Shown piece after piece: positions 6,518 to 52,931 of a stretch of 64,000 nt of DNA; positions within the stretch are counted from its first letter, which is position 1, and the number at the start of each line of letters is the position of its first letter. Origin of the DNA: a virus. Its lineage: Duplodnaviria; Caudoviricetes. The stretch spans positions 32,001-96,000 of IMG/VR virus record IMGVR_UViG_3300021387_000025; one strand, given 5' to 3'. Below the pieces are notes generated by a model, which saw only the letters and a program-made list of their open reading frames with translations, had not been told where the DNA came from and made no database searches. Position numbers and translations under genes: made by a program.

Positions 6518-6736
6518 ATGGAAATAGTTTTATATTCTACACATTGCCCGAAGTGTAAAGTAATTGAAACAAAACTTAAACAAGCTAACTTGAATTACAC
6601 CGAAGTCGATGATGTAGAAGAGATGATTAAATTAGGTTTTAAAATGGCGCCGATCTTAAAAGTTGATAATGATATTTTAGATTTTGCAGCCGCAAATAAA
6701 TTCTTAAATGAGGTAAGAAAGAATGGCGTCAATTAA
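6518..6736 (+). CDS. Glutaredoxin/NrdH-like redoxin
   Basis: MEIVLYSTHCPKCK (CxxC) and MAPILKVD; AGGAG RBS; adjacent to nrdD. Confidence 0.85.
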   Translation: MEIVLYSTHCPKCKVIETKLKQANLNYTEVDDVEEMIKLGFKMAPILKVDNDILDFAAANKFLNEVRKNGVN

Positions 6737-8645
6737 TGTACGATTAAACAAAAACTTTACAACTCAGTTTAATAAATTACAAGCTGAATACGGGGAAGAA
6801 TTTGCGCGCCTTAACGGTCTTGGAGACGAATAGCTTTCCTACACTGATTTCATTCAAAATTTTATTGACACAGAAACAGTTGCCGATGCTTCAATTGACA
6901 GTAATGCAAATGTCTCTTCCAAAGATATGCGTACGTTAATGAATGAAATGCCTAAGCCGCATCGTAAACTTTTAGCATATAACAAAATCTATTTTGAATT
7001 AAATAAAAAATATGGTTTTAAAACTGCTAATGAATGGCTTCGCGCAGAATGGAGTAAAGCACTTTATATGCACGATGCAGATACAGCCACATTTTTACAT
7101 TATTGTTTTGCATATGACTTAAAAGATTTAGCTGAGAAAGGATTATTCTTTTTAAATGGATTTAACTATGAAGCGCCGCAGCATTTATCGACTTTTGTTG
7201 ATTTTGTAAAAGAATTTATTAGTTTTGCAGCAAACCGCAGCTCCGGCGCGGTAGGTTTGCCTAACTTAATTCCTTATATGTATTACTTCTGGAAGAAAGA
7301 CTGTGAAAATGGATATGCAACAAAAGATGCTGATTACTATGCTCGTCAGCAGATTCAAAGATTCATTTATGCCGTTAACCAGCCTTATGTGCGTGATGGT
7401 ATGCAATCGGCCTTTACGAATGTCAGCGTATTTGACGGACCATATTTGGAAGCTTTGTTTGGCGGATCAGAGTTCCCCGATGGAACTTTTATGATTGATG
7501 AAATAGAAGAAATTAAAGAGTTCCAAAAAGTTTTTATGGAAGTGGTGGCAGATATTCGTCAAAAGAATATGTTTACCTTCCCCGTATTAACAATTTCACT
7601 CCTCAGGCAAAATCACAAATTTATTGATGAAGATTTTGCGCGGTGGGGTGTTGCGCATAATATGAAGTGGAATGATTCTAATCTTTTTATTGATGATAGT
7701 GTCACCTCTCTTTCAAACTGCTGCCGTTTAAAATCTAATATTGATGACTTAGGCTATTTCAATTCCATAGGTGGTACAGCACTCAAAGTTGGTAGTGTAA
7801 AAGTCTCTACCGTGAACCTCGCGCGCCTTGCATTAGAACACGACAATGAACAAGATTATCTTGTCGCACTTCGTGATTTAGTTGAGCTTGATTGTAAAGT
7901 TCTTGATGTTGTAAGACATATTATTGAAAGAAATGTTGAAAAAGGATTGCTTCCAAATTTTTCAAAAGGTTTAGTTGATTTTGAACATCTATATAATACA
8001 GTTGGCATTATTGGTGTTTATGAAACAATGAAAAAATTTGGATATACACGCCAAGACGAATTTGGTAACGTGTATTATACGCCAGCAGCAGACCAATTTG
8101 GAAAGAAGATCTTTGAAGTAATTCATCGTACTAAAGACCAATTTGCGCTTGATAAGAATTATAAAATCAATCTTGAACAAATTCCAGGCGAATCCTGCGC
8201 CGCTAAGTTCCAAAAAGCTGATGAATTATTGTTTGGTGATAAAGTAGTTGATGATCTACCGCTCTACGGAAATCAATTCATCCCGCTTGGCATTAAAACA
8301 ACAATTCAAGAAAGAATTAGAATTGCATCATTATTTGATTCTTATTGTAACGGTGGGTCAATCGCGCACATTAATATTGAAGCTCCATTTAATAATTTTG
8401 AAAAAGCTTGGAAAATGACTGAATATATTGCAGATCAGGGATTGACTTATTTTGCTTTCAATACAAAAATCCAAGCTTGTAAACATAATCACGCCTTCTA
8501 TGGAAAGATTTGTCCGTTATGTGGAGAACCAGTAGCCACTGAATATACTCGTGTAGTAGGATTCTATACTCCAATTCAGTCATGGTCAAAAGAACGCAAA
8601 GCAGAGTATAAAATGCGTGAGTGGGAGAATGTAAATGCTAATTAA
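6723..8645 (+). CDS. nrdD: Anaerobic (class III) ribonucleoside-triphosphate reductase, 640 aa (one TAG at 6831)
   Basis: SNCCRL, FTFP, GGSIAHIN, CxxxH..CPLCG, and glycyl-radical motif RVVGFY; start extended to ATG 6723 by TAG readthrough. Confidence 0.92.
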
Positions 8646-9114
8646 AGGAATAAAAGATGAATGTATTGGTGATTTTAAAGAAATTGGGATGTTGATTGTG
8701 TTTCCAAATTGCAGCTTTAAATGCGATAAGGATTGCGGCCGCCCCATTTGCCAAAATTCTCACTTAGCAAATTCACCAGTAATAGAAGTGCCAATTGACA
8801 ATATAATTGAAAGATATTAGCAAAATCCTATCTCTACTTCATTAATTTGCGGTGGTCTAGAACCTTTTGATTCAATTCAAGATTTATATATGCTAATTGC
8901 AGATTTTCGTAAAGTTTCTAATGATCCAGTTGTAATATATACTGGGTATACTGAGGAAGAAGTAGAAAAAATATTAGGCTGGGCTTTTATAAAATGGTTA
9001 GGAAATCTTTATATTAAATATGGAAGATTTATTCCTGGTCAAGAGCCACATTTTGATGAAGTTTTAGGAATTAATTTAGCCAGTGATAATCAATATGGCA
9101 AATATTATGAATAA
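8635..9114 (+). CDS. nrdG: Anaerobic RNR activating enzyme (radical SAM), 159 aa (one TAG at 8818)
   Basis: CSFKC..C..CQN, GGLEPF, IYTGY, YGRFI, ASDNQ; two track fragments join in frame across a single TAG. Confidence 0.9.
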
Positions 9115-31883: not shown

Positions 31884-32954
31884 TCAGATATTTTCGTAAG
31901 GATTATAATATGTCTGGTCAACGCCAGTGTTCTTGTAAACACCCCAGTTATAGTGTGTAAGAATTGCGCAACCCATTTTCTTGTAAGCATAAACTTCAAG
32001 AGAGTTGTCACGGTTCTTAAAGTCATTAATCTGCGTAGCGCCTTCAAGCACAACTTTGACAACCTTCTCACCAGTAGAAGGAAGCACGTAAGCAAGCTGC
32101 GGATCAACATAAGTCCTATTATTCTTCTCATCAACAAAAGACTGCGGGATCTGAACGATCGGAGCGCCACGGAAGATATTGACATAACCAGTTCTATGAA
32201 TCTGCTCAATATCATCAGGCGAGTACACGCCAGCAACACCGCCGTAGTTTGTACTATTACCAACAGTCACAGGGACGATAGCATCCGCGCCCATGTCAGC
32301 GATGAATTCCGGAGGAGCGAAGATAACAGGATTACCATACGCACGGACAACACTCATCAGCTTGACCATCTTATCTGTATTGAAGTGGTTGGAAGTTGCC
32401 TTATTAGCATCCGGACGATCAGCAGCGTCATATGCAGCACGCAGAGCTTTCTGGACTTCTACGAACACAGCATCTGTAAGACCCTGAGTCATAATGTCCA
32501 TAACTTCTGCAAGGGATTCAGCACCATCGAGCATTCTTTCGAAGTCGATTGTCGCACCGCCACCAACTGCATGAGCAGAAAGTTCAAATGTGCGGCTATC
32601 AAGTCTAAATGTCTCATAAACACCAGACAGACCAACCTGAGTAAGGAACTTCTTCGCACGAGCCTTACCAGTCTTAACTTTGAACAGTGCTTTTTGGCCT
32701 TGGCCAACAACCTGAACTTCCGCAAACGGAGACAGCGCCGCAATAACGTTCTTCGGCATAACCTGATCAATTGTCTCGATCATAATTTCATAAATATCAT
32801 AACGGTTCTTCATGAACTGATTCACAGAACCAGCAAGTTCACGGAGACCATCAACAAAAGCAGCATTAACATCAACATCCTGATTTGCAAAGCAAGCAGG
32901 AACTGTGCCCTTAGCAGCATGAAGGGCGATCTCTTTTAATTCACTAATAGTCAT
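31884..32954 (-). CDS. Major capsid protein, 356 aa
   Basis: Size, position after protease/scaffold, strong RBS, strong codon bias, TAG-free. Confidence 0.8.
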   Translation of the reverse strand: MTISELKEIALHAAKGTVPACFANQDVDVNAAFVDGLRELAGSVNQFMKNRYDIYEIMIETIDQVMPKNVIAALSPFAEVQVVGQGQKALFKVKTGKARAKKFLTQVGLSGVYETFRLDSRTFELSAHAVGGGATIDFERMLDGAESLAEVMDIMTQGLTDAVFVEVQKALRAAYDAADRPDANKATSNHFNTDKMVKLMSVVRAYGNPVIFAPPEFIADMGADAIVPVTVGNSTNYGGVAGVYSPDDIEQIHRTGYVNIFRGAPIVQIPQSFVDEKNNRTYVDPQLAYVLPSTGEKVVKVVLEGATQINDFKNRDNSLEVYAYKKMGCAILTHYNWGVYKNTGVDQTYYNPYENI

Positions 32955-41014: not shown

Positions 41015-41473
41015 ATGACAAACCCCACCATTTTCGAACACATGATCGACGGATACAACACTCACGCGTACACGCACGAGTACATTTTTGGTTTTGAGTA
41101 CAAGGGCGTTGTCTATATGTCAAAAGCTACAAGCTCGGTTCTGCCCTTTGTCCTTTGCCTTGACCGCGCAAGCCGTGGCGCTGGATACGCGCTTCGCTTT
41201 AAGCCCAACAACGGGCAGAAGCTGGTCCTGATGGCTGGCGCTGAGGTCCTTTGCTCAAAGGAATATTTCGAATCGCTGGTTCAGTCCTCTATCTACAACG
41301 CGGGCGAGATCTTTGAGAAGCTGGTCACTGAAAAGTTCGGACAGACCTGGATCAAGGACAACGTACCGTTCACCCAGGACGGAGACCTCACGGTTGACGG
41401 GATCGCCTACCAGATCAAGTTCAACAAAGCTACCTTCATCAACGAAAAGCAGCTTGCAAGGCTCGAGGGCTGA
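41015..41473 (+). CDS. PD-(D/E)xK (QxK variant) nuclease-fold protein, paralog A1
   Basis: GEIFEKLV..DGDL..YQIK; near-collinear with 44301-44759. Confidence 0.7.
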   Translation: MTNPTIFEHMIDGYNTHAYTHEYIFGFEYKGVVYMSKATSSVLPFVLCLDRASRGAGYALRFKPNNGQKLVLMAGAEVLCSKEYFESLVQSSIYNAGEIFEKLVTEKFGQTWIKDNVPFTQDGDLTVDGIAYQIKFNKATFINEKQLARLEG

Positions 41474-41565
41474 GCCTTGCACCCGCTGCCCGGGCCGATA
41501 AAAAAGGCTTGACAAACACAAGCTGGTATGATATAATAAAGCTATAAAGAAAAGGAGATAAAACA

Positions 41566-41742
41566 ATGAAGTTTTTATTTGTCGGTTATATAGCTCTGAT
41601 TCTGGTGGTTTTCTTCTTCAGTATTATTCATCAGGATGATGTAAATAAGAATGGATCTCGTAAATTCAACTGGCGCTTTGTAATTGTCCTGATTATGTTC
41701 ATTGTTTCGCCAGTAGTTGCCAAGCTTTGCGGTCTGATGTGA
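41566..41742 (+). CDS. Small two-TM membrane protein, 58 aa
   Basis: Own promoter and AAGGAG RBS; MKFLFVGYIALILVVFFF..WRFVIVLIMFIV. Confidence 0.7.
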   Translation: MKFLFVGYIALILVVFFFSIIHQDDVNKNGSRKFNWRFVIVLIMFIVSPVVAKLCGLM

Positions 41743-41853
41743 TCGCAAAGTTGGCCGGGCGGCCGCTGCCGGAGAAAAAAAGATTAAAAAGCACTTGACA
41801 AACCGGAGAACATCTGTTATAATAGACTTATCAAAAGAGAGGAGAACACAACA

Positions 41854-42018
41854 ATGACAAAGGAAGAAATGCTTACACTGGTAATTAGAAGATTCGGATT
41901 TGAACATCAGTATACAATCGACTTTGCAGAGTCAATCGAATGGTTAGGACTGGAAGAGTCCAGAACGCTTCTCGAAGCGGTTCTGACACTCCCACTGGAA
42001 GAGGACGAAGAGGACTGA
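41854..42018 (+). CDS. Small acidic protein, 54 aa
   Basis: Own promoter, GAGGAG RBS, terminator hairpin over the stop codon. Confidence 0.7.
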   Translation: MTKEEMLTLVIRRFGFEHQYTIDFAESIEWLGLEESRTLLEAVLTLPLEEDEED

Positions 42019-42196
42019 AGTCCTCTTCTCTTTGGGCGCGGAGTTAGTCATGACTAACCACTGCCCGGGCGATGGCGGAGTTAGTCATGACTAACTACGC
42101 AGAGTCCCGCTGCCGGTATAAAAGATTAAAAAGGGACTTGACAAACGCGCGATAGTATGATATAATAAGACTATCAAAAGAAAGGAAGAATTAAAG

Positions 42197-42415
42197 ATGT
42201 ATAATGTAGATCTGGCTATGTGCAATGGTATGGATACAGTTATAACTCATGTAGAACATATTCCGTTCTATTCGAGATGGGCGGCGCGCAAATATTCGCG
42301 CGAAGTTATCAAATGCATTGATGTCTATCATATAACAATTATGGACATGGAAACTGGTGAAATCGTTTTGGAATTAAATAATGACGGTTCGATTGAATGG
42401 GACTCGGAGGGTTAA
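42197..42415 (+). CDS. Hypothetical protein, 72 aa
   Basis: Cassette promoter, RBS and hairpin. Confidence 0.75.
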   Translation: MYNVDLAMCNGMDTVITHVEHIPFYSRWAARKYSREVIKCIDVYHITIMDMETGEIVLELNNDGSIEWDSEG

Positions 42416-42542
42416 ACCCTCCGATTCTTTGCCCGGGCGTTGAGTTAGTCACGACTAATTCAAAACTTTTCCGAAAAAACTATTGACAAAATTCTATTCT
42501 TATGTTATACTAAAGTCAGAAAAAGAGAAAGGAATCCGAAAA

Positions 42543-42980
42543 ATGAGAATTTGTTTTGATATGGATGGAACGATCGCCGATCTTTACGGAGTTGAAGGAT
42601 GGTTGGAAAATCTCATTGAAGAAAATACAAGGCCTTACGAAGAAGCAAAAGTTTTACTAAATATGCAGGCACTTGCAAGAGTTCTGAATAATCTCCAGAA
42701 AAAGGGATATGAAATCGGAATTATCTCGTGGCTTTCCAAAAATGGTTCTGAAAAATATAACGAAAAAGTAAAACTTGCAAAAATCGAATGGTTGAAAAAT
42801 CACTTAAAAAGTGTTAGATTCGACTTTCTGGAAATTGTCAAATATGGAACAGATAAAAATCTGGTTTGTACTGGAAAATCTGATATTTTATTTGATGATG
42901 AAATCGGAAACCGTGAAAACTGGAAAGGCATTTCCTATAATGTAGAAAATATCATTGAAGTTTTAAGAAGATTGAAATAA
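42543..42980 (+). CDS. HAD-family 5'(3')-nucleotidase-like phosphatase, paralog B1
   Basis: FDMDGT, IISW, K..WL, LFDD; start moved to ATG 42543 after the RBS. Confidence 0.8.
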   Translation: MRICFDMDGTIADLYGVEGWLENLIEENTRPYEEAKVLLNMQALARVLNNLQKKGYEIGIISWLSKNGSEKYNEKVKLAKIEWLKNHLKSVRFDFLEIVKYGTDKNLVCTGKSDILFDDEIGNRENWKGISYNVENIIEVLRRLK

Positions 42981-43115
42981 TCCTCTTTTTTCTCGCGAAA
43001 ACGGCGCCCGGGCGCAATCGAACACACGTACGAACAAAATTTTTTTTAAAAATACTTGACAAACCGGAAAATGTATGCTATAATTAAACCATCAAAAGAA
43101 AGGAAGATAACAAAC

Positions 43116-43274
43116 ATGAAGACATGGGAAGAAATGAATAAAATGGAAAGACTCGCTGAAATTATGTTTCAAGAGGATGAAGAAAGGTATAATAATAATC
43201 AACCTTTGATGTATTACACTAAAGAAGATTTTGAAGCAGAAAAAAAAGAAAGAGAAAATGAAAAAAATACTTGA
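43116..43274 (+). CDS. Small protein, 52 aa
   Basis: Cassette promoter and RBS. Confidence 0.65.
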   Translation: MKTWEEMNKMERLAEIMFQEDEERYNNNQPLMYYTKEDFEAEKKERENEKNT

Positions 43275-43329
43275 CAAATTCCGGATTCTATGATATACTT
43301 ATACCATCAAAAGAAAGGAAGAAACGAAA

Positions 43330-43611
43330 ATGAGCGGATTTTATGAATTAAAATGTATGGATGGAATGGGATTTTATACTTATTATTATTTTTATAGTCC
43401 TCGTGCAATTCGCAACCCCAAGATGGCATTAAATCGTGGTTACGCTTCTGACGCCATGAGATTAGTGGTTGATGATAGAGAAGAAGACCCCGTTGCAATT
43501 AAATTCATGCACAATATTTTTGAATACATTTACAAAAAGTATTTCAAAAAGGCGGGGACTTTTAGATTGGGTTATCGTGTAGACTGGGAAAAAGAAAGTA
43601 AAAGAATCTAA
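43330..43611 (+). CDS. Hypothetical protein, 93 aa
   Basis: Cassette promoter and RBS. Confidence 0.7.
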   Translation: MSGFYELKCMDGMGFYTYYYFYSPRAIRNPKMALNRGYASDAMRLVVDDREEDPVAIKFMHNIFEYIYKKYFKKAGTFRLGYRVDWEKESKRI

Positions 43612-43766
43612 AAAAATTGGCAAAAATCGAAATATCTGTTACAATTTAAACATCGAAAAAGAGGACCAAAAATCCTCTTTTTTTCGCGCCCGGACGAAAA
43701 TTTTTACTTGACAAATTCTACTTTTTATGATATAATAAGTTTATCAAAAGAAAGGAATCTCCAAAA

Positions 43767-44018
43767 ATGAAGAAGTTTTTCGGTATTGAACACGGTTATA
43801 AATTCGAATGGAATGATCTTCGTTGTTTTGCAACGGTTATAAATGTCATCCTTATAATGGTTTTTGGACTTTCTATTTCATGGTTCGGTCTTGGAATTGC
43901 AATAGTTGGTCTTGTTAAAGATTTAACAAGTGATCGGCATATTAACGGAATTGTAATGCATTTATCAGGTATTGCATTAAATGTTTATTTCCTTTTTCTT
44001 TTGTACGGCGGAGTGTAA
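43767..44018 (+). CDS. Small membrane protein, 83 aa
   Basis: Hydrophobic segments; cassette signals. Confidence 0.7.
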   Translation: MKKFFGIEHGYKFEWNDLRCFATVINVILIMVFGLSISWFGLGIAIVGLVKDLTSDRHINGIVMHLSGIALNVYFLFLLYGGV

Positions 44019-44300
44019 AAACTCCGCTTTTTTCGCGCCGAAAACAAAAAAATTTTTTAAAAAGGTATTGACAAATCCCTTTTCTCATGATATAATAGTA
44101 TCATAGAAAAGGGAAGTGGAGTGGACACCGAGGACGCAAACATCCAACCAACAATCGAGTTAGTCATGACTAACTATTGCCCGGGCGCCAGTTAGTTGCG
44201 ACTAACCGCGCGAAAAAATTTTTAAAAAATTGAAAAAAGGGGTTGACAAATACCGGTTCATCTGCTATAATAGACTTATCAAAAGAAAGGAAACACCGAC

Positions 44301-44759
44301 ATGAATACCTCGATTTTCAACTACCTCATCGACAACTACAACAAACTCTCCTACACACACAACTACATTTTCGGTTTCGAATTCAATCATACAATCTATA
44401 TGGCACACGCTGACGCCGAAGTTCTCCCCTACGTGCTGACGCTGGACAAGGCAAGCCGTGGCGCTGGTTACAGCATCCGCTTCAAGCCCAACAAAAATCA
44501 GAAAATGGTTCTGATCACGAAAGCTGAGGTTCTCTGCTCCGCTGAATATTTCGAAAGTGAAGTAGCCGAAAGCAAGTACAACGCTGGTGAGATTTTCGAA
44601 AAGATGGTAACCGAAAGATTCGGTCAGACTTGGGAAAAAGACAATGTTCCCTTTACCGAAGACGGAGACCTCACAGTTGACGGAATCGCTTATCAGATCA
44701 AATTCAATAAAGCAACTTTCATCAATGAAAAGTCCCTCGCAAGGTTCCTCGCAATGTGA
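44301..44759 (+). CDS. PD-(D/E)xK (QxK variant) nuclease-fold protein, paralog A2
   Basis: Same motifs and length as 41015-41473. Confidence 0.7.
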   Translation: MNTSIFNYLIDNYNKLSYTHNYIFGFEFNHTIYMAHADAEVLPYVLTLDKASRGAGYSIRFKPNKNQKMVLITKAEVLCSAEYFESEVAESKYNAGEIFEKMVTERFGQTWEKDNVPFTEDGDLTVDGIAYQIKFNKATFINEKSLARFLAM

Positions 44760-44862
44760 ACCTTGCGACTTTTCTTTTGCCCGGGCGCGCCGAACAGAAG
44801 TTCGAGAAAAAATTTTTGAAAAAGCACTTGACATTTTCGACAAGGTATGCTATAATACATAA

Positions 44863-44937
44863 TGTCAGGAGGAGAGAAAGGTAAACCTCGGCAAGCCATA
44901 TAGGGAACGGGTTCAAATCCCGCGGAGTCGCTCTCCA
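44863..44937 (+). ncRNA. Candidate small tRNA-like structured RNA
   Basis: Own promoter, no ORF; GGAGAG/CTCTCC closing stem and CGGG-TTCAAAT-CCCG T-arm. Confidence 0.45.
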
Positions 44938-45007
44938 AACCACGAAACTTTTAAAAAGTTGTGAAAAACCTCTTGACAAATCAAATCAAATGTGCTATAA
45001 TAAAGGC

Positions 45008-45222
45008 ACAGTAAGGGAAGGAAAACCCAAACAAACCCCTCGATCAAGCCAGCGTTCAGCCCTCTGTGAAAACAGAGAAACCGCAACCGACAGGACGGAA
45101 GGCGCAAGGTGCCTATGTAAGACGGACAACGAGGTTAAAGAGCGGTTAGCAAACAACTCGCAAGGGTACGAACCCCTAACGCCGTGGGGTGCGTGAGTCT
45201 GAAGGAACTAAAATCCCTTTCA
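45008..45222 (+). ncRNA. Candidate about 210-nt structured ncRNA
   Basis: Own promoter, no RBS-led ORF, GC-rich, several nested helices including CTCTGT-GAAA-ACAGAG. Confidence 0.55.
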
Positions 45223-45442
45223 AAAACAAATGCGACTCTATGGCACCGCCATAGGTCGCGCCCGGGCCAAATTTTTTAAAATTATACTTGACAAATTAAA
45301 AAATCTATGCTATAATACATATAGAAAAAGAAAAGAAAAACAAAGGGCTTGCGGTAGTTGAATAAGATAGTTTGCAGAGACTTGCTCCTTTGAATTATTT
45401 GAAAGACTACTAACCCACCATTAAAAAGGAGGAAAACTTATA

Positions 45443-45721
45443 ATGATGATTAATCCCGAATATGCAAAACCTATTCTTAAACTTTCTAACTTGCTCAATG
45501 AGCGCAACATTCCCCACACAGTAAATGTGATTTGGGACGGTTTACAGATTCGCTTCCCTTGGAATGGTGGAGATATTATTTGCCATTCAGGTTCTTACTG
45601 GCATGAATATGGACATGTGGAATCAATGGGATGTCCTTGGGACAAGGACGATGTGACTTGTCTTCGTGTTGACGAGGCAGGCGAACTTGTTGCTGATTGG
45701 TGGGCAGAGGTTGGGGATTGA
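45443..45721 (+). CDS. Hypothetical protein, 92 aa
   Basis: AGGAGG RBS; about 120-nt leader after promoter 45288. Confidence 0.75.
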   Translation: MMINPEYAKPILKLSNLLNERNIPHTVNVIWDGLQIRFPWNGGDIICHSGSYWHEYGHVESMGCPWDKDDVTCLRVDEAGELVADWWAEVGD

Positions 45722-45822
45722 CCCAACCGTGCCCGGGCCGCCAAAAATTTTTGAAAACTACTTGACAAATCTACTTTTATATGGTATAATGTATTCAGAA
45801 AAAGAGAAAGGAACACTTAAAC

Positions 45823-46260
45823 ATGACAACTATTTTCTTTGATATGGACGGAACAATTGCTGATCTGTACGGCGTAGAAAATTGGTTAGAATATCTTCAG
45901 AATGAAGATGCTTTCCCTTATGTAAATGCAAAAGCACTCCTAAATTTACAAGCACTCGCGCGCAGACTCAATAATTTACAGAGAAAAGGATATAGAGTTG
46001 AGATTATTTCGTGGCTTTCTCGTACTTCTTCCGAAAATTATGATAGACTGGTTACAACTGCAAAAATTGAATGGTTAGAAACTCATTTACACTCGGTTCA
46101 TTTTAATAAAATTAATATCGTTCGTTATGGTACTAATAAAGACAACTTCCGCCATTCAGATTTTGATATTTTATTTGATGACGAAGAAAAGAACCGCGAA
46201 AACTGGGGTGGAATTTCATACAATGTTGATAATATTCTTGAGGTGTTGAGGAGGTTATAA
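45823..46260 (+). CDS. HAD-family 5'(3')-nucleotidase-like phosphatase, paralog B2
   Basis: FDMDGTIADLYGVE..LFDDE; collinear with 42543-42980. Confidence 0.8.
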   Translation: MTTIFFDMDGTIADLYGVENWLEYLQNEDAFPYVNAKALLNLQALARRLNNLQRKGYRVEIISWLSRTSSENYDRLVTTAKIEWLETHLHSVHFNKINIVRYGTNKDNFRHSDFDILFDDEEKNRENWGGISYNVDNILEVLRRL

Positions 46261-46394
46261 TGAGCAAAAAGAAAAAGAAAACTACGGACCGTGGGCCAAC
46301 TTTCGTTGGATTATCTCCTATTTATGAGAAAACAAAGAAAGAAAGAATTGAAAGTAAATATAGAAAGCATAAAGGGCGCCAACTCGATGAGTAG
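46260..46394 (+). CDS. Small basic protein, 44 aa, apparently ending at TAG
   Basis: GGAGG RBS and TAATG coupling; the TAG lies in the loop of the terminator hairpin. Confidence 0.55.
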   Translation: MSKKKKKTTDRGPTFVGLSPIYEKTKKERIESKYRKHKGRQLDE

Positions 46395-46521
46395 AGGGCG
46401 CCTTTTCTGTGGCCCGGGCGCCGAGTTAACATAGACTAACTAAAAATTTTTTGAAAAAATACTTGACTTTTTGAAAAAGATATGATATAATTGATTTATC
46501 AAAAGAAAGGAAACAAATCAA

Positions 46522-46677
46522 ATGTTCGGTGATCTTGTAAATCTCTATTGTTCCTATTGTGATCTTGCGGACTACTACTTCTGGGCTTCTCGTGATTGGG
46601 ATCGTAAAGAAAAATTCCAGGAGTATAAGAAACTGGCAAAGAATATCGAAGAAATTTTGAAAGGAATGTGTGAATAA
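46522..46677 (+). CDS. Small protein, 51 aa
   Basis: Cassette promoter and RBS. Confidence 0.65.
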   Translation: MFGDLVNLYCSYCDLADYYFWASRDWDRKEKFQEYKKLAKNIEEILKGMCE

Positions 46678-46678
46678 A

Positions 46679-46870
46679 ATGAATGAAGTTTGGTATAAGA
46701 TTGTAACTCCTCAGACAACCGTTGAAATTCAGGACTATGCAACCGCAAAGCGTTTGGAAAGAAACGGCGCGCAGGTTGAAAGAATTTATAAATATAAAAA
46801 TCTTTCGTGCATCACGGATGAAAAGAGAAGAGAAAAAATTCTCAGAAAGTACGGACTGTCGATGGTGTAA
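46679..46870 (+). CDS. Small protein, 63 aa
   Basis: AAGGA RBS; hairpin over the stop codon. Confidence 0.65.
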   Translation: MNEVWYKIVTPQTTVEIQDYATAKRLERNGAQVERIYKYKNLSCITDEKRREKILRKYGLSMV

Positions 46871-46958
46871 ACCATCGATGGCCCGGGCCAAAAATTTTGC
46901 TTGACATTTTCTAAAAAGTATGCTATAATAGATTTATCAAAGAAAAGGAGATTTTCAA

Positions 46959-47132
46959 ATGACTCACATCGAATTAGTTGAAAAGATTATTGAAGGTTTT
47001 CAGAAGCAATTTAAAGAATATCCAGTAGAAAGTGAAAACGAAGAAACCTTCCGTCAGGGCATGATTTTTGCTTACAAATACTTAATTGAAGTTTTAAAGA
47101 ACAATGGATATCCCTATATAGAAGAAGATTAA
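46959..47132 (+). CDS. Small protein, 57 aa
   Basis: Cassette promoter and AAGGAG RBS. Confidence 0.65.
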   Translation: MTHIELVEKIIEGFQKQFKEYPVESENEETFRQGMIFAYKYLIEVLKNNGYPYIEED

Positions 47133-47207
47133 AATTTTTCAAAAAGCACTTGACAAAATAAACTTTATAGTGTATAATAGTCTTATCAAAAGAAAGGAAA
47201 TATAAAA

Positions 47208-47339
47208 ATGTTTTACTTTTTAATGAGTCTTTTAAGTGAAAATCCCGCGGGTGGTCCACAGATGTTTGGAGCTTTGTGTGACGGTTTTTATTTTGGAATT
47301 TTGCTTTGTCAGATAGTCAAGGCAATTAGAAGGAAATGA
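47208..47339 (+). CDS. Small hydrophobic protein, 43 aa
   Basis: Cassette promoter and RBS. Confidence 0.6.
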   Translation: MFYFLMSLLSENPAGGPQMFGALCDGFYFGILLCQIVKAIRRK

Positions 47340-47447
47340 GCGAACACTTGTTCGCTCTTGCCCGGGCCGCCAATTTTTGAAAAAGTTCTTGACAAAATAA
47401 AAAAAGTATGCTATAATGAATCTATCAAAAGAAAGGAAATAATAAAA

Positions 47448-47645
47448 ATGGCAACATTAAGTTTGAAAACTGCTATGAACATGATGGATATTGTTAGTTA
47501 TACTCTTTGCCGCACTGTTTGTCAGGATGAGACTTTTAAGACTATGTCTCATGAAGAATTGACCGAATACATAACTAACACTACAGAAGAAATTTTCGTT
47601 GCTTTTTGTGATGAAGTAGGAATTGATGAAATAACAGAATGGTGA
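47448..47645 (+). CDS. Small acidic protein, 65 aa
   Basis: Cassette promoter and RBS; start moved to ATG 47448. Confidence 0.65.
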   Translation: MATLSLKTAMNMMDIVSYTLCRTVCQDETFKTMSHEELTEYITNTTEEIFVAFCDEVGIDEITEW

Positions 47646-48024
47646 TCCCTTCTTTCGTGCCCGGGCGCGGTTAGCATAGACTAACTTGAAAATTTTTTAA
47701 AAAGTGCTTGACATTTTCGGGTGTTTGTGATATACTATATATTGTCAAGGGGAGATAGAAAGCCACGGCAGACAGCGGTACCGCAAGGTATAAAAACAGT
47801 AAGAAAATTTTCAAAAACCCCTTGACAAACTCCACAAAATGTGGTATAATAAAGGTACAAAATCAAGAGGGCGTGAGAAAATGGAAGCGCTTAAAAAAAT
47901 AAAAAAAAGTTGAAAAACCTCTTGACAAACTCAAAAAAATGTGCTATAATAAACACATAAGAAATGGAGATGAACTCCAAAAAAACTTGAGGGTCGCAAC
48001 CTAATAGCGAGAAAGAGGTCTGAT

Positions 48025-48405
48025 ATGACGAATCGTGAATTTCTGAACACCATTATCAATGCAAACATCTCTGATGAGATCACCGCGCAGGCACAGGACA
48101 TGCTTGCAAAGCTGGACGCTCGCAACGCAAAGCGCGCCAGCACTCCGTCAAAGACGGCTGTAGCGAATGAGCCGATCAAGGCAAAGATCCTTGAGCTTCT
48201 CGGCAACGCGACTGAACTGATGACTGCTCCGCAGGTCGGTGAGGCAGTCGGCGTCAGCACTCAGAAGGCTTCCGCACTTCTCCGCCAGATGGTAGAGGTC
48301 GGCACTCTTACCTCGGAAGAGGTCAAGATTCCGAAGAAGGGCAAGATGAAGGGTTACACCCTCGCAGAGGGCGCGCAGTATCTCGATAACGAGATCGCGC
48401 AGTAA
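48025..48405 (+). CDS. Coiled-coil plus winged-HTH DNA-binding protein, paralog C1
   Basis: MTNREF..MTAPQVGEAVGVSTQKASALLRQMV..KGYTL. Confidence 0.75.
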   Translation: MTNREFLNTIINANISDEITAQAQDMLAKLDARNAKRASTPSKTAVANEPIKAKILELLGNATELMTAPQVGEAVGVSTQKASALLRQMVEVGTLTSEEVKIPKKGKMKGYTLAEGAQYLDNEIAQ

Positions 48406-48574
48406 CCCATAGTTAAAACCACAAGGGAGAGAGAAATCTCTCCCATTTTTTCGGTTTCGAGTTAGTCACGACTAACCGTGCCCGGGCCGCCATCCCGAAA
48501 TTTTTTAAAAAGTAGTTGACAAATTAAAAATTTTATGATATAATAAATCTATCAAAAGAAAGGAAGTACCCAAA

Positions 48575-48892
48575 ATGAGAAATTTTGATTGGTTTGATGA
48601 ACTTTATTGTGTTGTTAAAGAAGATGGAACTTTCGCAGGCGTTCCTTGTCAGTCGATTGAAGAAGCAATTGAACTTGCCGCGCAACATGATGGAAGTAAA
48701 ATCTTTGATATGAGACTTGATAATGAATCCCTTTGGGAATATAATGATTATGATCCATATGAAAATATTCGATCTTGGGAAAGAAAATGCGAACAAGATA
48801 TTGAATACATGATGCGGGAAAACGAGGATTATAATTGTGATGATGATACGGGTTATGATCCTTATATGGGTTGTTATACCGATGAGTGTTAA
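48575..48892 (+). CDS. Highly acidic protein, 105 aa
   Basis: Cassette signals; D/E/Y-rich. Confidence 0.7.
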   Translation: MRNFDWFDELYCVVKEDGTFAGVPCQSIEEAIELAAQHDGSKIFDMRLDNESLWEYNDYDPYENIRSWERKCEQDIEYMMRENEDYNCDDDTGYDPYMGCYTDEC

Positions 48893-49183
48893 CCATCGGT
48901 TTGCCCGGGCGCGAACACATGTTCGGTAAAAACTTTTTGAAAAAAGTACTTGACTTTTCGGCGAAAGTATGGTATTATATATATTGTCAAGGGGAGAGAT
49001 AAGCGAGTGAGCGCTCCTCGGTTCAAAAGTCCTGCCGAGTGGCAGATAACAAGTAGATGAAAAAATCTTGAGAAACCCCTTGACAAACTTCAAAAAGTAT
49101 GCTATAATAAGCATGTAAAACAAAAGGAGATGAACTCCAAAACTTAAGGGTCGCCACCATACAGCGAGAAAGGATTTTATACC

Positions 49184-49531
49184 ATGACAAACCGTGAATT
49201 CTACAATGCAATCGTTGACGCTAACCTCTCTGATGAGATCACCGAAAAGGCGCAGGCGCTTCTGGCGCAGATCGACGCGAGAAACGAGAAGCGTGCTTCC
49301 ACTCCGTCGAAGAAGTCGGTCGAGAACGCACCTCTCAAGGATGCAATCGTAGCCCTCTTCAATGACGAGGTTAAGGTTCTCACCGCCGCCGAGGTCGGTG
49401 TTCGTCTTGAGATCACGACTCAGAAAGCGTCTGCTCTTCTGCGTCAGATGGTCGAGGGCGGTGTCCTCACCGCCGAGGAAGTAAAGGTTCCCAAGAAAGG
49501 AAAGGTCAAGGCTTACTCCCTTGTGGGGTAA
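49184..49531 (+). CDS. Coiled-coil plus winged-HTH protein, paralog C2
   Basis: Collinear with 48025-48405. Confidence 0.75.
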   Translation: MTNREFYNAIVDANLSDEITEKAQALLAQIDARNEKRASTPSKKSVENAPLKDAIVALFNDEVKVLTAAEVGVRLEITTQKASALLRQMVEGGVLTAEEVKVPKKGKVKAYSLVG

Positions 49532-49745
49532 CCGCAACACCGAGGGGAGAATTTTCTCCCCTCTTTTTTAGCAAAAAGTTAGTCTTGACTAACTCGCCCG
49601 GGCCGCCATCACAATAAAATTTGAAAAAATTATAATTTTTTTGTATAATATATTTAGAAAAAATAAAAAAGTTTTGAAAAAAACACTTGACAAATCCCAT
49701 TTTATATGATATAATCTACTTGTAAAAAGAAAGGAGATAAACAAT

Positions 49746-50114
49746 ATGGCAACTTCCAAGAAATCCCTTAATGACAAACTTCGTTATCGTTATCTGAACC
49801 TTATTAGTGACTATCTTCATTCACAGGACGAAGAGGTTCTCGTAACTGGTTCGAATGAAATCTGTATCCCTTGTCTTGACGAAGAGGGAAACGATGAATT
49901 TATGGTTATCACTTTCAAGGTTCCCACTGGTTCGCGCGATGGTGACGCATACGACGGTTATGCACTCGCCGAAGAGTACGAAATGAAGTGCAAGGAAAAG
50001 ATGGAAAAGGCGAAAGAGTCCGCAAAAAAGAAAGCGGAAAAGATCGCGCGAGATAAGGCAAACCGCGAAGCACGCGCGAAAGCAAAAGCGGAACATCAGG
50101 CAAAGGAGGCGTAA
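49746..50114 (+). CDS. Hypothetical protein with K/A-rich helical tail, paralog D1
   Basis: TGSNEI..PC.D.EGNDEF..KVPTG..YDGY shared with 51693-52064. Confidence 0.75.
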   Translation: MATSKKSLNDKLRYRYLNLISDYLHSQDEEVLVTGSNEICIPCLDEEGNDEFMVITFKVPTGSRDGDAYDGYALAEEYEMKCKEKMEKAKESAKKKAEKIARDKANREARAKAKAEHQAKEA

Positions 50115-50215
50115 GCCTCCGTTTGTCTGGCCCGGGCAAAAATTTTAAAAAACTGCTTGACAAGTTTAAAAAAGTATGGTATAATAACTATAGAAAACAG
50201 AAAAGGAGAATAAAA

Positions 50216-50422
50216 ATGAGTGATAAAAATAACAACAGTGTAAAATCTGGTATCGGTTTCAGCGGTTTGCTTACAATTGCTTTTGTTGTATTAAAACTAT
50301 GTGGTGTAATCACTTGGTCTTGGTTGTGGGTACTTTCCCCGTTGTGGATTTCAACGGCGATTGTTCTACTGATTGTGATTATGATTTTGATTATTGTCGC
50401 TGTGAATTCAGAAAGTACTTGA
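50216..50422 (+). CDS. Small membrane protein, 68 aa
   Basis: GIGFSGLLTIAFVVLKLCGVITWSWLWVLSPLW, a motif common in phage membrane proteins. Confidence 0.75.
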   Translation: MSDKNNNSVKSGIGFSGLLTIAFVVLKLCGVITWSWLWVLSPLWISTAIVLLIVIMILIIVAVNSEST

Positions 50423-50474
50423 CAAATCAGACTTAATGTGCTATAATAAAACTATCAGAAGAAATGAAAATGAC

Positions 50475-50609
50475 ATGGACGAACACGATAAAAAAGAAAT
50501 AGAAAAACTTAAAAGTTTTAAAAAATGGTATCTTTGGTTTTTGTCAGCTTCAGAAGAAGAAAAAAAAGAATATTTAAGAAACAGATGGAAAGCAGAAGAA
50601 AGGAAATAA
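50475..50609 (+). CDS. Small charged protein, 44 aa
   Basis: Follows promoter 50419; weak RBS. Confidence 0.4.
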   Translation: MDEHDKKEIEKLKSFKKWYLWFLSASEEEKKEYLRNRWKAEERK

Positions 50610-50769
50610 AAATTATAATGATGAAAAAGAGGAGTAATCCTCTTTTTGCCCGGGCCGCGGTTAGTGGAGACTAACTAAAAAAATAAAAAATTTTTTTCAA
50701 AACCACTTGACAAATCGGTTCTTTTATGGTATAATCTCTATTGTAAGTTAAAGAAAGGAACACACTACC

Positions 50770-51411
50770 ATGAATCATCTGATTGTACTTGACACTGAAA
50801 CCACAAACTCCATCGAAGAACCCCTTGCATATGACATTGGTTGGGCCGTCGTAACCGAAGAGGGTAAAGTTCTCAAAACTGAAAGCTACGCTGTGGCTGA
50901 AATTTTCCTTGACAAGGAGCTGATGCAGGTAGCATATTTTGCGGAGAAGATCCCGCAATATTGGGAAGAGATCAAAAACGGTAACCGCAAGCTGGCGCGT
51001 CTGTCAACGATTTTCAAATCTCTTTACGCTGATACTCGCGCCTATGATGTGAAAGAAATCTATGCACACAACGCGCGTTTTGATGACCTCAGCCTCAAGC
51101 TTACTCAGCGCTTTATTAGCGGTTCGAAATATCGTTACTTCCTCCCCTATGGCGTGAAGATGTGCGACACCTTGAAAATGTCAAGAGAAGCCTTCGGCAA
51201 AGACCCTGAATATAAAGCCTTCTGTGATGAAAACAATTACAAGACGCCGAGAGGTCAGCGCAAAATGACCGCAGAAGTTCTATATAGGTTCATCAGTGGA
51301 CAGAATGACTTTGAAGAGGTTCACAAGGGGCTTGATGATGTATTGATCGAAAAAGAAATTTTAATCGAGTGCAGACGGCGCGGTGTGGTTGATGGGTCAC
51401 TCTTCGAGTGA
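50770..51411 (+). CDS. DEDDh-family 3'-5' exonuclease
   Basis: LDTETT, AHNARFD, H.GLDDV motifs. Confidence 0.85.
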   Translation: MNHLIVLDTETTNSIEEPLAYDIGWAVVTEEGKVLKTESYAVAEIFLDKELMQVAYFAEKIPQYWEEIKNGNRKLARLSTIFKSLYADTRAYDVKEIYAHNARFDDLSLKLTQRFISGSKYRYFLPYGVKMCDTLKMSREAFGKDPEYKAFCDENNYKTPRGQRKMTAEVLYRFISGQNDFEEVHKGLDDVLIEKEILIECRRRGVVDGSLFE

Positions 51412-51692
51412 CCCGAAAAACGGCGCCCGGGCGCCCATAAGAAAATCTTATAGAAAAAGTGCTTGACTTTTTCAAGATTCTGTGGTATTATATATATTGT
51501 CAAGAGGAGAGACGACCATCGCAAGAAATCTTGTCGGGAACCCTAACACGGCACGTCCTATGACCGCCGCAGAAGGTGAGGCGTAGGGAGAGAGGACTCA
51601 AAAAATTTTTTCAAAAACTTTTGAAAAACCCCTTGACAAACCTCTGAAAATGTGATATAATAGACCTATCAAAAGAAAGGAAGGTACATAAA

Positions 51693-52064
51693 ATGGCAGT
51701 ATCTCGTAAAACTCTTCGTGACAATCTCCGCACCGCTTATCTCGATCGTGTGATCGCACTCTTCACCGCTGACGGTGAGGAAATCCTGCGGACGGGTTCC
51801 AATGAAATCGCCCTCCCCTGCGTGGACGCTGAGGGCAATGATGAGTTCGTAGTCGTAACGCTCAAGGTGCCGACTGGCGAGCGTGGCGGAGATCCGTATG
51901 ACGGCTACGGCGAGGCCGAGGCCTACGCTATGAAGGTAGCAGAAAAGGCCGAGAAGGCCAAGGAAGCGGCGGCGAAGAAGGCCGCCAAGATTGCCAAGGA
52001 CGAGGCTGACCGCAAGGCAAAGGCCGAAGCCAAGGCGAGAGCCAAGACGGAAAAGGGAGAGTGA
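51693..52064 (+). CDS. Hypothetical protein, paralog D2
   Basis: Collinear with 49746-50114. Confidence 0.75.
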   Translation: MAVSRKTLRDNLRTAYLDRVIALFTADGEEILRTGSNEIALPCVDAEGNDEFVVVTLKVPTGERGGDPYDGYGEAEAYAMKVAEKAEKAKEAAAKKAAKIAKDEADRKAKAEAKARAKTEKGE

Positions 52065-52175
52065 AAACTCTCCTGCGTCTGAAAGGGGTTAATACCCCTT
52101 TCTTTTTCTTCTACAGTTAGTTGTGACTAACTTTGCCCGGGCATCGTCTACCCGGGCGCGCATCCCTAACCTTCC

Positions 52176-52204
52176 ATTATAACACAACTTTGAATTTTTG
52201 TCAA
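52176..52204 (-). promoter_or_regulatory. Leftward consensus promoter firing antisense into the array end
   Basis: TTGACA-N17-TATAAT on the minus strand, no ORF downstream. Confidence 0.7.
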
Positions 52205-52565: not shown

Positions 52566-52931
52566 TTACTCTTCGGTTGCAAGGACGTAGCCGCGCTGCG
52601 TACCCTTTCCCTTAATCTTTACGTCGACCTTCACGATCTGGCCAGCTTCAACGAGCGGCTTCAGAAGAGACGGTACAGACTGAGGCTTCAGCTCAAGGCC
52701 AGCCTCGTCAATAAGCATCGTCGCCGTCTTCGGCTCATCAGTCACACAAGCGAAAATCGCCTGGCGCAGCGGCTCCTTCTCAGCTGCCTTTTCAGCTGCC
52801 TTCTCGGCAACCTTGGCGCGCCGCTTTTCATTGGTCGCATCCAGCTGCGCAACAGCATCGCGCGCAAACTCGATCATCTCATCAGTTACAGTTCCTTCAA
52901 TTACAGCATTGTAAAATTCACGATTCGTCAT
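52566..52931 (-). CDS. Coiled-coil plus winged-HTH protein, paralog C3
   Basis: MTNREFYNA..QSVPSLLKPLV..VKIKGKG..GY; terminator at 52525-52546. Confidence 0.75.
   Translation of the reverse strand: MTNREFYNAVIEGTVTDEMIEFARDAVAQLDATNEKRRAKVAEKAAEKAAEKEPLRQAIFACVTDEPKTATMLIDEAGLELKPQSVPSLLKPLVEAGQIVKVDVKIKGKGTQRGYVLATEE

Follow-up and report, generated by a model that had tools for sequence, protein, structure and literature searches.

What does a palindrome that resembles the operator of a bacterial metal sensor do, in many copies, among the early genes of a large phage, and which protein would bind it there? The question is raised by the DNA presented above, a window of 64,000 nucleotides that spans positions 32001–96000 of the complete 119,955-bp IMG/VR virus record IMGVR_UViG_3300021387_000025 (Duplodnaviria; Caudoviricetes), a genome with direct terminal repeats. 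An earlier note, made from the sequence alone, had listed eleven palindromes of the form GTTAG-N6-CTAAC in this window. Our window scan recovered nine exact copies, starting at 42043, 42080, 44159, 44191, 47670, 48461, 49578, 50660 and 52116 (0.03 expected; a count of nine was reached in none of 100 shuffles), together with exactly the two variants that the note had included, each with one mismatch, at 42444 (..CTAAT) and 46425 (GTTAA..). The array thus holds 11 boxes, all confined to 42.0–52.1 kb, inside a 10.6-kb array of early promoters. The only other one-mismatch match in the window, at 7250, is unrelated, and no further exact copy was found in the whole 119,955-bp genome. We consider it fairly probable that these palindromes are single-dimer operators of the DtxR/IdeR/MntR class (TTAGT, ACTAA), bound by the iron- or manganese-sensing repressor of the host itself.

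The longer consensus of the boxes is R-GTTAG-T-N4-A-CTAAC-Y. Structures of IdeR on DNA have one subunit on each CCTAA pentamer, with dimers taking pentamers 1 and 3 and pentamers 2 and 4, and a single IdeR dimer binds the half site, for which the minimal consensus was redefined as TTAGG-N4-CCTAA, the T at pentamer position 3 being essential (Marcos-Torres et al. 2021, PMC8464063). For MntR the site length is 18 bp, and Pro36 contacts the thymine at -7 (PMC11882963). The phage box, TTAGT-N4-ACTAA, stands in the same register as the IdeR half site, with T-T-A-G at -7 to -4. All 11 boxes consist of two inverted NCTAA pentamers with a four-base gap (TTAGN-N4-NCTAA, a 14-bp core), one base being changed in each variant, and every half-site of the 11 has the T at pentamer position 3, which corresponds to the T at -7 of MntR sites and is contacted by the Ser or Pro of the recognition helix. 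The earlier note had equated the spacing with that of a DtxR/IdeR dimer site, and this geometry is correct by the structural work (PMC8464063), the box being a single-dimer site and not the 19-bp iron box. That canonical box, in which two DtxR/IdeR dimers occupy four pentamers at a 5-bp stagger (TTAGGTTAGSCTAACCTAA), was rejected as a description of the phage sites, which have two pentamers each and unconserved flanks beyond the R...Y pair. The ArsR/SmtB 12-2-12 operator was likewise rejected, as the centres of the phage copies vary and their outer flanks are not conserved, and so was the lambdoid CI/Cro operator of helix-turn-helix (HTH) repressors of the XRE type, as the phage has zero HTH_3 domains at E ≤ 0.1. 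GACTAAC, the right arm, never varies in this phage, and the left arm is looser. Other phages do not generally show this asymmetry (G at position 10 in 11 of 11 boxes, C at position 7 in 6 of 11), which is treated here as a probable result of shared descent.

We scanned one genome per GTDB species for the perfect 16-mer and obtained at least 120 loci; flanking open reading frames (ORFs) were clustered and their families named by Pfam. Among the matches listed, the 16-mer is mostly intergenic, even in Streptomyces at 70% G+C, and the top families of the 167 nearest ORFs are Fe_dep_repress (11), FeoA (11), Fe_dep_repr_C (10) and FeoB_N (5), with ZIP, ZnuA, FecCD, a TonB receptor and a NEAT protein among the other neighbours. 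The listed DtxR and Feo loci include some from Clostridiales, Clostridium, Eubacteriales and Bacilli metagenome-assembled genomes (MAGs), as well as from Bacteroidota, Verrucomicrobiota and Actinomycetota. Five whole genomes of Clostridia contain 2–7 sites each, with variable centres. Pairs 25 bp apart stand ahead of feoA, one site precedes mntP, and one 16-mer equals the phage box at 44191 letter for letter. Across 151 genomes of one family, that of a rumen Lachnospiraceae MAG, we counted 801 sites of the variable-centre motif against 291 of the reversed control (2.75-fold; Wilcoxon p = 8e-16), a mean of 5.3 matches per genome where 1.9 were expected from the control (about three above it). 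The nearest ORFs at 30 arbitrarily chosen sites included FeoA (5), the DtxR family (3), DUF3793 (2), FeoB (1), a FUR-family protein (1) and a flavodoxin (1). Since these families make up, by estimate, well under 1% of genes, the enrichment among neighbours is about a hundred-fold, and proximity to genes of metal homeostasis and their regulators was found with both the perfect 16-mer and the variable-centre motif.

In Clostridia, a two-domain protein of MntR type, with a DtxR-like S-x-P-S-V-S recognition helix, is encoded next to the box, and both rumen and gut Clostridia have such candidate regulators. Positions that were not part of the search agree between 161 phage and 63 bacterial sites, with a purine before GTTAG and, at position 6, T commonest and G rare, although the phage sites are nearer to a perfect palindrome. 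The bacterial copies overlap promoters and have no CCGG core beside them, in a manner unlike that described below for the phage; bacterial clusters of several boxes within 5–20 kb, considered as possible prophage arrays, resemble ordinary promoter operators. The palindrome marks the feoAB/DtxR-MntR regulon in Clostridia and in other phyla, with the same tolerated variation. As far as bacteria at large can stand in for the phage's own host, this bears out the check that the earlier note had proposed for host promoters: the motif precedes DtxR-family genes, feoA/feoB, ZIP, ZnuA and mntP, including in rumen and gut Clostridia. As a side observation, DUF3793 genes repeatedly adjoin a GTTAG box in Lachnospiraceae-family genomes (L196 and the L2xx loci), which suggests that DUF3793 may be an uncharacterised member of the iron/manganese regulon.

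In the phage, the boxes belong to an early cassette array (41488..52142, + strand) made of about 30 consensus sigma-A promoters, small ORFs, terminators, 19 copies of the octamer GCCCGGGC and all the boxes. The octamer was expected 0.13 times; all 19 copies lie at 41488–52142 and the rest of the genome has none. The promoters are perfect or near-perfect (TTGACA, 17 bp, TGnTATAAT) and all on the + strand, and a cassette runs from promoter to small ORF or non-coding stretch, hairpin, octamer, A/T-rich tract and the next -35. The earlier note had placed each palindrome within about 10 bp of an octamer, on either side and twice on both; the gaps are 2–4 bp when the palindrome is upstream and 3–9 bp when it is downstream, and octamers 42063 and 44179 have a box on each side. 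Ten of the 19 junction octamers have no box.

Octamer 42063 is flanked by the perfect box GTTAGTCATGACTAAC (42043..42058), 4 bp upstream of it, and by a perfect 16-mer (42080..42095), 9 bp downstream of it and 42 bp upstream of the -35 at 42138; no strand is assigned to these or the other boxes. The ..CTAAT variant (42444..42459) follows octamer 42431 by 5 bp and ends 23 bp upstream of the -35 at 42483. At octamer 44179, a perfect 16-mer (44159..44174) ends 4 bp upstream and the box GTTAGTTGCGACTAAC (44191..44206) begins 4 bp downstream; the former lies 3' of the promoter at 44068, and is hence transcribed, and the 16-mer of the latter is identical in the rumen Lachnospiraceae MAG G005. The GTTAA.. 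variant (46425..46440) stands 5 bp downstream of octamer 46412, and the box at 47670..47685 begins 3 bp after octamer 47659 and ends 22 bp short of the -35 at 47708. Two boxes come past the terminators of genes for winged helix-turn-helix (wHTH) paralogs 1 and 2 respectively, at 48461..48476 (3 bp upstream of octamer 48480) and 49578..49593 (2 bp upstream of octamer 49596). The box at 50660..50675 follows octamer 50648 by 4 bp and leaves 31 bp to the -35 of the exonuclease cassette, and the last one (52116..52131) is 3 bp upstream of octamer 52135, at the array end. All boxes end 22–93 bp upstream of the next -35, none overlaps a promoter, and 7 of the 11 come after a terminator-like hairpin and before the next promoter; they are therefore mostly untranscribed. 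The exceptions are the pair 44159/44191, served by promoter 44068, and box 52116, which is read through from a minus-strand promoter at 52204.

That promoter is an observation in its own right. It has a consensus TTGACA at 52204 and a TATAAT ending at 52176, and downstream of it, within the span 52204–52085, it meets two CCCGGG cores, the last palindrome and a terminator that works in both directions; the predicted RNA, of about 90 nt, would contain the junction motifs. The arrangement is conserved in the relative G009 (L058, about 8190–8290).

Is the palindrome a peculiarity of this phage? A scan of IMG/VR for the exact perfect 16-mer gave matches of two kinds, namely Escherichia coli lambdoid prophages, with a single copy, and many metagenomic phage contigs, in which the palindrome is degenerate and multicopy. 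Among the latter, a 29-kb fragment (G006, locus L028) has 52 copies, with pairs exactly 34 bp apart round GCCGGC; a complete genome of 181 kb (G007) has 34, about 20 of them in one non-coding block of 775 bp; a 43-kb fragment (G008, locus L042) has 10, with pairs 32 bp apart round CCGGT; and a complete 128-kb close relative of this phage (G009) has 6. Megablast of the array against INPHARED phages gave zero matches. The palindrome recurs in multiple copies in related and in unrelated phages of rumen type. Its arms are invariant across more than 200 phage copies while the centre varies, and at the site of G009 orthologous to box 52116 (in L058) the arms are kept and the centre is changed. In G006 a composite of box, N6, GCCGGC, N6 and box stands at nearly every gene junction, with the 34-bp spacing in 13 of 13 intervals and an unconserved spacer sequence, and G008 has a similar design with 32 bp round CCGGT. 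The non-coding blocks of G007 (L052:4100–5700, about 108.6–110.2 kb) flank one small gene and hold about 24 GTTAG boxes, some of them 19 bp apart, as well as half sites like those of LexA Cheo boxes and many AATTGTC-N-GACAATT palindromes.

The pattern of constant arms and variable centres bears on whether the palindromes might act as hairpins, in RNA or single-stranded DNA, that serve in processing, stability or termination. All 11 can form a 5–7 bp stem with a loop of 4–6 nt, and the pair 44159/44191 and box 52116 are transcribed. The stems would nevertheless be weak (-2.1 to -7.0 kcal/mol), no T-tract follows the palindromes, and the 7 boxes that lie between a terminator-like hairpin and the next promoter are mostly untranscribed. 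Invariant arms with a variable loop over so many copies are the pattern of protein readout and not of covarying stems, and the true terminators at the same junctions have idiosyncratic stems. Rfam and tRNA searches also gave no matches in the array, and an intrinsic terminator or structured RNA was rejected as the identity of the element; a hairpin function appears extremely improbable.

If a protein reads the box, the position that the box occupies says something about which protein. Perfect Cheo boxes, CGAAC-N4-GTTCG, the LexA type of Firmicutes, occur four times in the genome (40862–40875, 44791–44804, 47341–47354 and 48912–48925; no strand assigned), all in or at the array, and the one at 44791 lies downstream of octamer 44779, in the slot of a GTTAG box. 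In relatives, 5–6 Cheo boxes are found in the G007 array and up to 14 per 17–20 kb elsewhere (L251, L257, L272, L273), typically 4–9 bp upstream of GCCCGGGC; in L257 the Cheo box holds this position where a GTTAG box stands in the present phage. As LexA is a host protein and its boxes fill the slot, the slot accepts the operators of host repressors. The palindromes beside the octamer fall into a few discrete sequence classes, while the terminator stems are all different. Further classes at the junctions of L012, L020, L059 and L060 are AATTGTC-N-GACAATT, ACTTTAGCGC...AAAGT and ACAAAC-N6-GTTTGT.

Besides its slot, the box keeps a relation to the core of the neighbouring motif. In 46% of 236 phage boxes a CCGG core is centred 13–17 bp away, against 11% of random positions, with an unconserved sequence between box and core. 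The cores are lineage-specific but all of the form N-CCGG-N' (GCCCGGGC, GGCCGGCC/GCCGGC, ACCGGT), and such sequences are recognised by type II nucleases of the CCGG family, whose cuts leave compatible 5'-CCGG ends. A C5-methylase search of the phage found no match; an NgoMIV-type nuclease model matched neither the phage nor any of 14 control genomes, and this result carries no weight. A decoy would not need such geometry, which is why the box probably also acts jointly with whatever recognises the core.

This coupling could mean that box, core and box together mark the boundaries of cassettes as a module for recombination or mobility, in which the core is cut or synapsed and the palindromes are arms of that site instead of transcription-factor operators. 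Besides the frequent 13–17 bp spacing and the variation of the core by lineage within the N-CCGG-N' form, the presence of several paralogous cassettes in the array would fit such a module, as would the variation in box occupancy at homologous junctions of close relatives. Against it, octamer and palindrome are separable (the relatives L059 and L060 carry 10–11 octamers and no palindrome, and the boxless octamers of the present phage say the same), the slot also takes LexA boxes and other discrete palindrome classes, neither a recombinase nor a C5-methylase was detected in the phage, and the bacterial copies are ordinary operators with no neighbouring core. We regard a recombination module as quite improbable, and it is in any case compatible with a host repressor as the reader of the box itself.

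Which protein, then, is the reader? A host repressor is the most likely binder because the phage encodes none: searches of the phage for the DtxR N-terminal domain (PF01325) and for the XRE HTH found no match. Several observations weigh against this reading. Operators of the DtxR/IdeR/MntR class are expected to overlap a promoter or transcription start, and the phage boxes do not. The distance between the centres of box and core is fixed within each phage (17 bp in 24 of 24 cases in L028, 16 bp in 8 of 8 in L042), and a simple decoy leaves this coupling unexplained, which hints at a nucleoprotein complex specific to the phage. wHTH paralogs sit inside the arrays of the three complete palindrome-bearing genomes, and the 775-bp block of G007, with its roughly 20 copies, would equally fit a loading site for a phage protein. 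Finally, unrelated regulators use the same 16-mer. E. coli lambdoid prophages of the PhiR42_1 type (L011:5152–5167 and about 20 other IMG/VR prophage loci) have the identical 16-mer once, between cI, the gene for a 135-aa CI-like repressor, and cro, so an XRE-type repressor uses it too. In a separate set of 18 actinobacterial and sphingomonad loci, a 12-2-12 repeat is built round the palindrome and covers the start codon of ArsR-type genes. With both uses in view, sequence by itself is not diagnostic. Regarding these ArsR-type genes, the actinobacterial copies extend to CTTGCGTTAGTC-AT-GACTAACGCAAG, and at L076, L099, L140 and the 15 other loci of this set genes of about 103 codons start at an ATG within the palindrome (M-T-N...), which suggests that they may be leaderless and autoregulated. 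A link between the phage wHTH proteins and this ArsR cluster was rejected as mere generic winged-helix similarity, the common MTN N-terminus being a coincidence of the ATG-ACT-AAC of the palindrome.

These objections lead to the phage's own candidates, which the earlier note had named as the alternative binder: three wHTH paralogs, numbered 1 to 3, encoded at 48025..48405 (126 aa, + strand), 49184–49531 (+ strand) and 52566..52931 (121 aa, − strand). The boxes could be operators of one of these, or of an unrecognised dimeric phage protein, that shuts off or insulates early cassettes or forms a complex with a factor that binds the core; their resemblance to the metal operators of the host would then be convergence or mimicry. 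All three genes lie in or beside the array and two are directly followed by a box, homologues lie inside the arrays of G007 and G009, and the exact box–core spacing in L028 and L042, the dense non-coding array of G007 and the sharing of the 16-mer by XRE and ArsR regulators elsewhere could all be read in the same way. Yet the paralogs are members of a large metagenomic family with a generic ArsR/MarR-like winged helix in which the DtxR contact residues are not kept. The complete relative G011 has no palindrome at all, yet in its two wHTH orthologs the STQKASAL core of the recognition helix is kept, with changes only after it. An IMG/VR scan seeded with the helix peptide QKASAL[LS]RQ returned 49 loci (785 kb in total) with 75 palindromes against 0 in the control, but 20 of the 49 had no box within 10 kb. 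Conversely, the 29 kb of G006 hold 52 boxes but no wHTH homologue, though this record is a fragment. Since orthologs with a nearly unchanged helix occur without the palindrome, the wHTH proteins are unlikely to be its dedicated binder, and the alternative is weakened. With the phage lacking recognisable DtxR or XRE domains, and the adjoining slot carrying LexA boxes whose binder is a host protein, we judge a phage-encoded binder of any kind to be unlikely, and return to the host repressor.

What would a host metal sensor do on these sites? The earlier note had offered two outcomes, early expression tied to metal status or a titration that derepresses metal uptake by the host; the position of the boxes away from promoters speaks against simple repression. 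Its holo-repressor would occupy the boxes on entering and replicating phage DNA. The boxes are unlikely to be classical promoter-blocking operators because they lie 22–93 bp upstream of the -35, past terminators, and are nearer to the ideal palindrome than host operators are. Titration is favoured instead, possibly together with gating of the core or sensing of the host state, because of the 11 near-ideal sites per genome copy, the avoidance of promoters and the dense non-coding arrays of other phages. Replication would multiply the 11 sites of each genome copy (34 to at least 52 elsewhere), and they would out-compete the roughly three host sites above control. This would derepress iron uptake and supply iron-dependent enzymes of the phage, and occupancy beside the CCGG core could let the metal and SOS status of the host gate whatever acts at the core. 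A bolder version would make the early region of this phage group an operator sponge for at least two host repressors, whose near-ideal LexA and DtxR/MntR operators beside CCGG cores, multiplied by replication, strip both repressors from the host chromosome and switch on SOS and iron uptake to the benefit of the phage, the core being accessible only when the host is damaged or starved of iron; we put this forward very tentatively, as a doubtful but possible extension.

A demand of the phage for iron is plausible. The earlier note had pointed to the activase of a class III ribonucleotide reductase. The reductase itself, NrdD, is encoded at 6723..8645 (+ strand), with one in-frame TAG read as Gln. 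The activase stands less firmly, as the ORF downstream of NrdD (8635–9114) has a weakly NrdG-like match and was not matched in a search with PF13353.

The array has further features that touch the cassettes and not the boxes. Consensus promoters stand ahead of ORF-free stretches at 44857–45260, 47737–47800, 48979–49050 and 51492–51600; three of the resulting transcripts would open with a common leader, ATTGTCAAGRGGAGA, and one closes with a tRNA-like T-arm and a CCA after it; ARAGORN and Rfam searches of the array gave zero matches. The paralogous cassettes form three pairs, encoding two 152-aa proteins (41015–41473 and 44301–44759), two HAD/NT5C-like nucleotidases (42543–42980 and 45823–46260) and two lysine/alanine-rich proteins of 122–123 aa (49746–50114 and 51693–52064), and are consistent with duplication or exchange between junctions.

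If the host-repressor reading is true, a widespread group of stop-codon-recoded rumen phages would read or manipulate the iron status and DNA damage circuits of the host through cis sites alone, without a regulator of their own, and they would offer a direct test of whether repressor titration lets a lytic phage adjust the metal uptake of its host. The bacterial side has a value of its own, as we found no description, in the literature searched, of the Lachnospiraceae-type regulon, in which GTTAG-N6-CTAAC precedes feoAB, flavodoxin, mntP and DUF3793 genes, with an MntR-type regulator. For the phage side, no report was found, in the literature searched, of DtxR/MntR single-dimer sites arrayed with LexA boxes next to a CCGG core where cassettes meet; no mention of the 16-mer sequence was found in full texts, and nothing relevant in the literature on phage decoys and titration.

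Parts of the picture are already known from other systems, both operators of a host repressor on phage DNA (the tox operator) and clusters of host-factor sites in lytic phages (CtrA). The closest molecular counterpart is the half operator of IdeR/DtxR, with which the phage box shares the inverted pentamers four bases apart, the T-T-A-G register, the essential T and the free central bases, and, in bacteria, boxes of the phage type precede DtxR-family genes and feoAB. It differs from the IdeR half operator in the fifth pentamer base, where G is rare and T, A or C is usual (TTAGT/ACTAA), in an extra conserved flanking G...C pair and in the position of the phage sites away from promoters. The regulators of Clostridia are, moreover, of MntR type and have a different residue at the position of IdeR Gln43, as read against PMC8464063, IdeR itself not being in the alignment. 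The MntR arrays of Bacillus subtilis mneP and mneS (PMC11882963) are similar in that dimer sites of a DtxR-family protein stand in a row upstream of a promoter, with the same 18-bp length and T at -7. The mneP sites, however, are weak, abut at 19-bp spacing, reach the -35 and activate transcription (PMC11882963), whereas those of the phage are strong palindromes, single or in pairs 32–37 bp apart round the octamer, beside promoters that are already consensus.

Among phages, corynephage beta is an established case of DNA with an operator for a host metal sensor of the DtxR family (see PMC13001254), which the present array would resemble in this. Its tox operator, repressed by host DtxR, is one 19-bp iron box for two dimers, placed over the promoter of a single conversion gene, and corynephage beta is temperate. 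The present phage is large and apparently lytic, and has 11 single-dimer boxes (up to at least 52 elsewhere) at cassette junctions, none of them over a promoter. Clusters of CtrA sites in lytic phages of Alphaproteobacteria, associated with 'lytic deferment', occupy promoters, and their control of transcription was demonstrated (Mascolo et al. 2022, PMC9437464). As in those phages, putative sites for a host factor are here concentrated in one region rich in intergenic sequence, outscore typical host sites and occur in several phage lineages. The factors differ, being a metal sensor and LexA instead of a cell-cycle regulator, and the present sites, each coupled with a CCGG core, stand ahead of promoters instead of within them. 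If the host-repressor reading is true, the precedent of 'lytic deferment' would extend from CtrA to metal sensing in anaerobic Firmicutes.

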